Both the position numbers and the translations under genes were made by a program. This document shows, piece after piece, positions 51,156-51,442 of a stretch of 64,000 bases of DNA; positions within the stretch are counted from its first letter, which is position 1; every line of letters starts with the position of its first letter. Origin of the DNA: a virus. Taxonomy: Duplodnaviria; Heunggongvirae; Uroviricota; Caudoviricetes. The stretch spans positions 1 to 64,000 of the IMG/VR virus record IMGVR_UViG_2851976983_000001; one strand, given 5' to 3'. The notes beneath the pieces were generated by a model. That model did no database searches. It had not been told where the DNA came from and saw only the letters and a program-made list of their open reading frames with translations.

Positions 51156-51342
51156 TCAAACTATTTATTCTGCTGGCACCTAAACAAAAGGTAAAGCATA
51201 AGCAGAGATAGGACTTGGCTATGCAGAGGAGCCTGAATAAATGTCGTTAGCATTTCACTCATCGAAAGATACCTCTATTCGATTAATCAAATGCGCTACG
51301 AGACCAAATTGACGTAGATTCACCTTAGTTGTAAGATGAACT

Positions 51343-51442
51343 TGTATTGACGTATCCGTTCTCGTAACGCGATATGAGGTTTTTAACGATGGCAGTCGTT
51401 AAAAACCAGAAAGAACTCCCGTTCGGGGGTTCTTTTTTTTTT
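51343..51442 (+). ncRNA. candidate small RNA (about 100 nt)
   Basis: sigma70-like promoter TTGACG-17-TAAGAT (51308-51336); two stem-loops; ends in strong terminator GAACTCCC-GTTC-GGGGGTTC plus T10 (51413-51442); no ORF. Confidence 0.35.

Follow-up and report, generated by a model that had tools for sequence, protein, structure and literature searches.

The window that we analyzed, a 64-kb stretch of DNA, is 100% identical to plasmid p503829_100 of Escherichia coli strain 503829 (NZ_CP025870.1; position 51000 of the window corresponds to 22719 of the record), which is a pHCM2/SSU5-type phage-plasmid. pHCM2 is a long-known cryptic plasmid of Salmonella Typhi CT18, and its relatives are common phage-plasmids among clinical Klebsiella, Citrobacter, and E. 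coli. A small RNA (sRNA) candidate lies on the plus strand in a 750-bp annotation-free gap between a hypothetical CDS (50318..51046, minus strand) and a tRNA-Asn gene (51794..51868, minus strand). The minus-strand neighbors of the locus are phoH and the genes for a glutaredoxin, a DNA ligase, a DnaB-like helicase, CobT, and a tyrosine recombinase. The same gap holds, on the minus strand and 82 nt from the sRNA start, an open reading frame (ORF) of 33 codons that is unannotated in every record examined and was missed by the earlier note on this DNA, which had described the sRNA candidate from the sequence. The features of the locus are collected in Table 1.

Table 1. Features of the sRNA-ORF locus (positions in the window; minus-strand ranges written "x to y" run 5′ to 3′)
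Feature	Position	Strand	Remarks
sRNA promoter	51309..51337	+	-35 TTGACG 51309-51314, 17-nt spacer, -10 TAAGAT 51332-51337; from the promoter scan
Predicted sRNA, about 98-99 nt	51344..51442	+	start placed from the -10 position
Single-stranded 5′ tail of the sRNA	51344-51350	+	predicted fold
SL0 hairpin of the sRNA	51351-51376	+	predicted fold
SL1 (middle) hairpin of the sRNA	51378-51407	+	predicted fold
Terminator hairpin of the sRNA	51408-51437	+	T10 run at 51433-51442
Candidate type I toxin ORF, 33 codons plus stop	51161..51262 (51262 to 51161)	-	encodes MSEMLTTFIQAPLHSQVLSLLMLYLLFRCQQNK
Putative toxin mRNA, about 400 nt	51124..51527	-	leader, sRNA-complementary segment, long hairpin, translation-initiation hairpin, ORF, terminator; both ends predicted
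Candidate toxin-mRNA promoter, extended -10 TGTGcTATGCT	51533..51543	-	TG 51541-51540, hexamer 51538 to 51533
Alternative lineage-specific extended -10 TGcTACAAT	51504 to 51496	-
Leader segment GGGAAGUG, part of SD-like GAGAGGGA	51466..51473	-	helix 1
sRNA-complementary segment of the toxin leader	51441 to 51344	-	complementarity
Long leader hairpin, 19 + 8 pairs	51293..51370 (51370 to 51293)	-	helices 4 and 5, 99% paired
Possible leader ORF, 22 codons	51255..51323	-	GUG start here, AUG in 9 of 11 relatives
Translation-initiation hairpin AUCGAAuAGAgguaUCUuUUCGAU	51261..51283	-	helix 6, 9 pairs, 98% of cells paired
Toxin-mRNA terminator AAAAUGGGGCUUCGGCCCCAUUUUGCUUUG	51124..51153 (51153 to 51124)	-	helix 10; compensatory change in the Klebsiella versions

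The intergenic stretch was present in 81 plasmids, 33 from Salmonella (mostly pHCM2 of S. Typhi), 34 from Klebsiella, 12 from Citrobacter, and 2 from E. coli. Twelve representatives and relatives from these genera made up the alignment set; they stand for only about four to five lineages, and the covariation counts given below rest on few independent events. A phage collection gave no DNA match to the intergenic stretch and no tblastn match; the element is catalogued as a plasmid. The representative genomes of 185,579 species held no copy of the module by peptide pattern or DNA pattern. IMG/VR and metagenomes contained the same lineages only and added no covariation power. Judged by these sequence collections, the module is confined to the pHCM2-type phage-plasmid group.

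Evidence for an sRNA gene on the plus strand

The earlier note had proposed a regulatory sRNA with a dedicated promoter-terminator pair, lying where no plus-strand protein gene occurs for kilobases. The promoter TTGACG-17-TAAGAT is indeed present, with 9 of 12 consensus matches, and the terminator is as strong as described, consisting of a GAACTCCC-GTTC-GGGGGTTC stem-loop that can be extended to 13 pairs and ends in ten T residues. A hairpin RNA of about 98 nt also agrees with the description, except that the predicted hairpins number three and not two. The remark that no ORF is present needs a similar correction, as a 24-codon plus-strand ORF exists (51374..51448); it is not conserved, and we rejected it as a gene on reading the alignment, in which the Klebsiella versions stop after 9 codons. 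The nearest annotated plus-strand CDSs (45433-45819 and 56324-57376) are about 5 kb away on each side, and therefore no upstream plus-strand transcript could use the terminator.

Matches to the promoter and terminator consensus alone prove nothing here, as they are not above chance in this region: a consensus scan of 5 kb found 4 promoter-like sites against 6.9 expected and 7 terminator-like sites against 4.4 expected. In the alignment, the -35 hexamer TTGACG was invariant in all 12 relatives, with flanks only about 50 to 60% identical, and the -10 hexamer varied at its third base only, being TAAGAT or, in the Klebsiella lineages, TATGAT. The terminator was kept in 12 of 12 relatives with changes in the loop and a G-U to A-U switch, SL1 showed compensatory changes in five pairs, and 92.9% of the cells of the sRNA structure were paired. 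The 99-nt RNA had a folding energy of -42 kcal/mol (z = -6.9). It is this fold score, together with the conserved promoter hexamers and the five compensatory SL1 pairs, that places the sRNA above chance. The G-U/A-U switches in SL0 and the terminator preserve pairing on the plus strand only, as they would be A-C mismatches on the minus strand, and the T run lies 3′ of the terminator stem on the plus strand in all lineages, both of which argue that the plus strand is the functional one for the sRNA hairpins.

A covariance model of the sRNA found exactly one copy in the window and one copy beside every ORF copy in 7 IMG/VR and 4 metagenome loci. Altogether, the ORF and the sRNA co-occurred in 23 of the 23 loci examined. 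An Rfam scan, which the earlier note had recommended, returned no family at gathering thresholds, and at E values up to 10 it returned terminator-driven noise only, namely Phe_leader (36 bits against a cutoff of 55), ctRNA_p42d, and ohsC (18 bits, E 8.7). The conserved promoter and terminator, the covarying structure, the strand-specific G-U pairs, and the lack of a conserved ORF support, by sequence comparison, a small regulatory RNA gene that is an independent unit, transcribed from a promoter of its own and ending at its own terminator.

Target prediction in trans, also recommended in the earlier note, gave no target within the window beyond chance. About 0.7 complementarities of 12 nt to the sRNA were expected by chance in this search. 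Two perfect complementarities of 13 nt were found, at 38106-38118 (minus strand, to nt 8-20 of the sRNA) and at 41261-41273 (plus strand, to nt 58-70); the first is inside a 1172-codon ORF and the second on a strand that has no gene there, and both are probably due to chance.

A conserved 33-codon ORF on the opposite strand

The 33-codon ORF is preceded by a Shine-Dalgarno (SD) sequence, AGAGG, 9 nt upstream, and it is intact in 11 of 12 relatives. Its variable columns fall at codon positions 1, 2, and 3 in the numbers 14, 10, and 28, and its pairwise dN/dS values range from 0.09 to 0.31, with dS reaching about 1. Because third-position variation dominates and dN/dS is low, we consider the ORF, on this comparative evidence, to be a real gene under purifying selection. 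The exception is one Citrobacter lineage, found in plasmid P3 of C. freundii isolate 18 (L005), in which a 1-nt insertion in an A run shifts the frame (MSEMFTIFIQAPLLSQVLTVLALLPMG...) and the sRNA is intact. Four other Citrobacter plasmids of 110,089 bp gave the same match coordinates and identity as this plasmid in the search.

The encoded peptide of 33 residues is hydrophobic with a basic C terminus, and its hydropathy resembles that of LdrD. AlphaFold predicted a single helix spanning residues 3 to 31. The peptide had no match in Pfam or NCBIfam at E values up to 10, and nothing was found in PADLOC or among PDB sequences. A full HMMER scan of 1.84 billion protein cluster representatives gave one match, which belongs to the same peptide family.

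A putative mRNA with a long structured leader

Upstream of the ORF, in a variable and indel-rich stretch, the sequence TGTGnTATnnT (51543 to 51533) was invariant in 11 sequences (alignment positions T3, G4, T5, G6, T8, A9, T10, and T13). We infer that it is the extended -10 promoter of a toxin mRNA that would start at about 51527. It was absent from the list of the promoter scan on account of its poor -35. No CTG-N10-CAG motif was seen when the region was inspected for a LexA box, and neither the scan nor a reading of the sequence revealed a plausible minus-strand promoter between the sRNA start and the ORF.

The mRNA of about 400 nt has a predicted folding energy of -129.7 kcal/mol (z = -8.8), and closure of its 5′ and 3′ ends was predicted in every lineage folded, via different pairs. 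Minus-strand structures were derived from RNAalifold and pair counting. In the long leader hairpin, the 5′ arm (51370 to 51344) complements nt 1 to 27 of the sRNA, and the sRNA promoter lies in the top and the 3′ arm. In some or all sequences, eight of its 27 pairs are G-U pairs, which on the plus strand would become A-C mismatches. Because this hairpin is valid only on the minus strand, that strand is likely to be transcribed and folded across the 5′ end of the sRNA gene. An interior loop of the hairpin, CAAUACA (51349 to 51343), faces the single-stranded 5′ tail of the sRNA and is a plausible nucleation site for pairing between the two. Closer to the ORF, the translation-initiation hairpin pairs part of the SD (AGAGG, 51276 to 51272) as well as the A and the U of the AUG start codon (51262 to 51260).

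Further elements of the leader are less distinct. The segment GGGAAGUG is predicted to pair over a long range with codons 16 to 18 of the ORF (51217 to 51210); this helix is weak and short, with 6 pairs of which 2 are compensatory, the compensation being a change from GGGA/UCCU to GGAG/CUCU along with a Val-to-Ala change. A conserved SD-like GAGAGG followed by a 3-codon mini-ORF is found at 51452-51475 (minus strand), in the leader upstream of the sRNA-complementary segment, and reads AUG GGA AAG UGA here and AUG GGA CAG UAA in Klebsiella. The purine tract ahead of this mini-ORF, which is shared with the long-range helix, may be structural rather than translated. The 22-codon leader frame is open in 11 of 11 sequences, an open stretch of this length not being significant by itself, and has no SD; its UGA stop overlaps toxin codons 2 and 3, so that the frame ends 5 nt into the toxin ORF, and its start is 21 nt outside the sRNA duplex. 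By analogy, it could play the role of mok or ldrX. Other minus-strand leader ORFs of 47, 52, and 61 codons were rejected, being broken in the Klebsiella lineages by nontriplet indels and stops.

When the window was compared with Kp35, KpKP36, and CitRHB, identity was 88 to 96% in the sRNA promoter region, 77 to 100% in the 5′ part of the sRNA, 73 to 100% in the translation-initiation hairpin, and 60 to 74% in the 33-codon ORF. The other flanks (leader, toxin-promoter region, and spacers) were 36 to 64% identical to the two Klebsiella lineages. By these alignments, conservation in the noncoding core of the module far exceeds that at the synonymous sites of the ORF.

Variation of the slot beside the tRNA-Asn gene

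The slot beside tRNA-Asn differs among related plasmids. In the sister SSU5-like E. coli plasmid pTB212 (L028, 1469-2403), it holds an annotated type II YafO-family toxin and an adjacent small gene, and in another plasmid (L029) it is empty. A 14-nt palindrome, GGGGCCGAAGCCCC, occurs exactly twice in the window (51135-51148 and 51619-51632; 0 expected), one copy forming the core of the terminator of the toxin mRNA and the other that of the terminator of tRNA-Asn, so that the same hairpin stands on both sides of the module. In CitRHB and KoxJKo3, the left homology junction falls at the GGGGCCGAAGCCCC hairpin, a pattern that suggests cassette exchange at terminators.

From 51344 rightwards, the sequence of Citrobacter sp. 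RHBSTW-00524 matches the window at 100% identity, but in the toxin ORF identity is only 60% (peptide, 58%). In K. oxytoca JKo3, the same divergent toxin version as in RHBSTW-00524 is combined with a pHCM2-type sRNA variant. From these two loci (L006 and L007), in which the crossover zone is 51296-51343, the module appears to be mosaic, with recombination inside the invariant promoter/leader core.

A candidate type I toxin-antitoxin module

The sRNA gene occupies the stretch 82 to 179 nt upstream of the toxin AUG, wholly inside the putative leader, to which the sRNA is perfectly complementary. Because the long minus-strand hairpin extends over the sRNA promoter and the first 27 nt of the sRNA, and a conserved extended -10 lies upstream of the sRNA gene, the two transcripts would overlap in antisense. 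Given this perfect target in cis and the lack of a target in trans beyond chance, we refined the earlier reading of a regulatory sRNA to that of a cis-antisense antitoxin RNA. The sRNA is thus probably the RNA antitoxin of a type I toxin-antitoxin module that pHCM2-type phage-plasmids carry and that has gone unannotated. The locus combines a gene for a small hydrophobic peptide, a long and structured predicted leader whose ribosome-binding site (RBS) is occluded, and a putative antisense RNA fully within that leader, 5′ of the ORF. This combination matches the published definition of type I systems (PMC8594479, PMC4147584), at the level of sequence and predicted structure.

In the mechanism that we propose, the minus strand would give rise to an mRNA of about 400 nt (about 51527 to about 51124) that encodes a 33-residue membrane peptide and holds its RBS and AUG in a hairpin, and the sRNA would be transcribed from its own constitutive-type promoter on the opposite strand. 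The 5′ tail of the sRNA would meet the interior loop of the long leader hairpin, pairing would spread from there, and the long duplex would be cut by RNase III, the leader would be refolded, or both. By analogy with known systems, repression could proceed through cleavage of the 98-bp duplex by RNase III or through blocked coupling. If the plasmid were lost or sRNA synthesis stopped, the unstable sRNA would decay first, and the stable mRNA would then be translated into a peptide that damages the membrane. As a result, the phage-plasmid would be stabilized, or a competing infection aborted. Constraint folding with the sRNA bound gave no clear change in SD/AUG accessibility. As a counterpoint, the reverse of the sRNA terminator could halt part of the minus-strand transcription before it reaches the ORF.

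A small membrane protein other than a toxin, for example, an accessory or superinfection-exclusion peptide whose expression is tuned by the sRNA without addiction, would leave much the same traces, since the anatomical evidence fits any antisense-controlled small protein, and no toxin family was matched (Pfam, NCBIfam, and PADLOC; a nonsignificant E of 0.11 in the profile comparison with LdrD). However, the occlusion of the SD and AUG, the length and structure of the leader, and an antisense RNA dedicated to it and driven by a strong promoter amount to multilayer silencing, a hallmark of type I toxin mRNAs (PMC8594479, PMC4147584). The size, the hydrophobic helix, and the basic tail of the peptide likewise suit type I toxins, and the YafO pair in the equivalent slot of pTB212 supports a toxin-antitoxin role for the module. 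The lineage with a frameshifted ORF and an intact sRNA has, moreover, the order of decay expected for a toxin gene, and we consider a nontoxin peptide unlikely.

An sRNA with its own promoter, a long-U-tail terminator, and a single-stranded 5′ region is typical of Hfq-type sRNAs. As the candidate has all three, including a Rho-independent terminator, it might be a stand-alone regulator acting in trans on phage-plasmid or host mRNAs through short imperfect pairing, with the 33-codon ORF unrelated; the two 13-nt complementarities elsewhere in the window would fit this. Yet one of these lies deep in the 1172-codon ORF and the other on a strand that has no gene there, near the chance level, the ORF and the sRNA occur together at every locus, and the minus-strand structure overlaps the sRNA gene, so that we hold a purely trans-acting sRNA to be quite improbable. 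The sRNA may have a trans role beside the cis role. A third alternative is that there is no functional plus-strand RNA at all, with the palindromes serving as DNA-level or minus-strand features (operators, a bidirectional terminator, or leader hairpins). The promoter region does coincide with a conserved minus-strand hairpin, and consensus promoter matches are no commoner than chance in the region, but the G-U pairs of SL0 and the terminator stem are valid on the plus strand only, the T run follows the stem on that strand in all lineages, and SL1 covaries, unlike a protein operator, whose sequence would be expected to stay fixed. On this explanation, the promoter match would be conserved only through its location in the long leader hairpin, but the single -10 change, from TAAGAT to TATGAT, falls in an unpaired loop of that minus-strand hairpin and goes toward the consensus. 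We regard this explanation as very improbable.

With the antisense antitoxin as the preferred reading, a bolder version can be put forward tentatively, and we would sooner doubt than defend it as a whole. The module would represent a new type I family specific to phage-plasmids, serving as an addiction or abortive-infection device in a swappable slot beside a tRNA cluster, its halves exchanged by recombination inside the invariant promoter/leader core and its toxin under three layers of control (the antisense RNA, the SD-occluding hairpin, and a long-range lock between the leader and the ORF). If true, this would also show phage particles to be vehicles for the horizontal spread of type I systems, which have been viewed as seldom mobile. 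If the module itself is confirmed, both its toxin peptide and its antitoxin RNA would found new families, the stable maintenance of pHCM2-type elements would be easier to explain, and there would be a natural example of a type I system packaged into, and transferred by, a virus. There is also a concrete annotation gap, with both genes missing from all records examined.

Comparison with known type I systems

As in the type I class, the locus has a gene for a small hydrophobic peptide (less than about 60 aa), the coding nature of which is supported by the comparisons above. The relative positions of the sRNA (51344-51442), the ORF start on the opposite strand (51262), and the predicted mRNA start (about 51527) give it the architecture of Ldr/Rdl and Hok/Sok, and with about 400 nt the putative mRNA falls inside the range listed in T1TAdb for the mRNAs of type I toxins, 150 to 400 nt (PMC8594479). 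The likeness to ldr/rdl extends to the toxin (33 to 35 residues, hydrophobic, with a basic C terminus and similar hydropathy), to the antisense RNA, which lies on the opposite strand inside a long 5′ leader upstream of the ORF and leaves the SD and AUG uncovered, and perhaps to a small leader ORF, which might be a coupling device (PMC4147584). The RdlD start in K-12 is 49 nt upstream of the ldrD AUG, against 82 nt here.

By sequence, however, the peptide is not an Ldr. A comparison with LdrD by hhalign gave E 0.11 and a probability of 0.5%, aligning QAPL with AAPV, and there was no Pfam match. In the Ldr/Fst superfamily, the transmembrane helix is followed by a conserved Trp and then by charged residues (Fozo et al. 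2010, PMC2887945); a Trp at the equivalent position is found in 2 of 6 peptide variants and is absent from the window peptide, in which the basic tail is present. No Rdl match was obtained with cmscan at E values up to 10, and the sRNA covariance model had no match at the K-12 rdlD locus. In addition, the sRNA has about 98 nt and three hairpins, in contrast to 64 nt for rdl, and the module is single copy on a phage-plasmid, whereas ldr is chromosomal and repeated.

The likeness to hok/sok of plasmid R1 lies in the plasmid location, in an mRNA of about 400 nt with predicted 5′-3′ closure and an occluded SD, in the antisense RNA within the leader 5′ of the toxin ORF, and in a single-stranded 5′ tail that could start pairing. 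By analogy, the expected role would be postsegregational killing. Hok has about 50 aa. The peptide of this locus has 33 aa and does not match the Hok family in Pfam, no Sok match was found in Rfam, there is no mok-like frame that overlaps the toxin ORF extensively, and the sRNA does not cover the start of a leader ORF.

Other systems are more distant. The aapA/isoA systems of Helicobacter pylori share a small helical peptide and a transcript predicted to be locked by long-distance pairing with the SD in local hairpins, but their antisense RNA overlaps the ORF (PMC8594479), unlike the sRNA here, and there is no sequence similarity. In Fst/RNAII (par of pAD1), the antisense RNA is convergent at the 3′ end of the toxin mRNA and shares a bidirectional terminator with it (PMC8594479, PMC2887945), whereas here the sRNA is located 5′ of the ORF, and a separate terminator (51153 to 51124) follows the toxin ORF. 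TisB/IstR-1, ShoB/OhsC, Zor/Orz, and DinQ/AgrB have a divergent, nonoverlapping sRNA with short complementarity in trans (PMC8594479); here, in contrast, the interval from the sRNA start to the ORF has no plausible minus-strand promoter, the minus-strand structure reaches 27 nt into the sRNA gene, and the only Rfam match to a family of this type was the ohsC match at noise level. By these comparisons, the module would work like ldr/rdl, yet it is a separate family, being neither Ldr, Fst, nor Hok by sequence.

Other RNA elements in the window

Directly 3′ of tRNA-Asn, at 51709-51792 (minus strand), we observed an element that is about 84 nt long and has a 20-bp stem without mismatches (-47 kcal/mol, z = -6.1). 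ARAGORN did not call a tRNA at 51709-51792. The equivalent position in E. coli CH4804 is a tRNA-Ser(UGA), in a plasmid that has four tRNAs there, and the element may be a degenerate or unusual tRNA-like element. Elsewhere in the window, 37035-37453 (plus strand) matched the Rfam family of the cspA thermoregulator over its full length (RF01766, 185.7 bits, E 2e-49), and the phage-plasmid seems, from this match, to carry a cspA-like cold-shock mRNA with a thermosensing leader.
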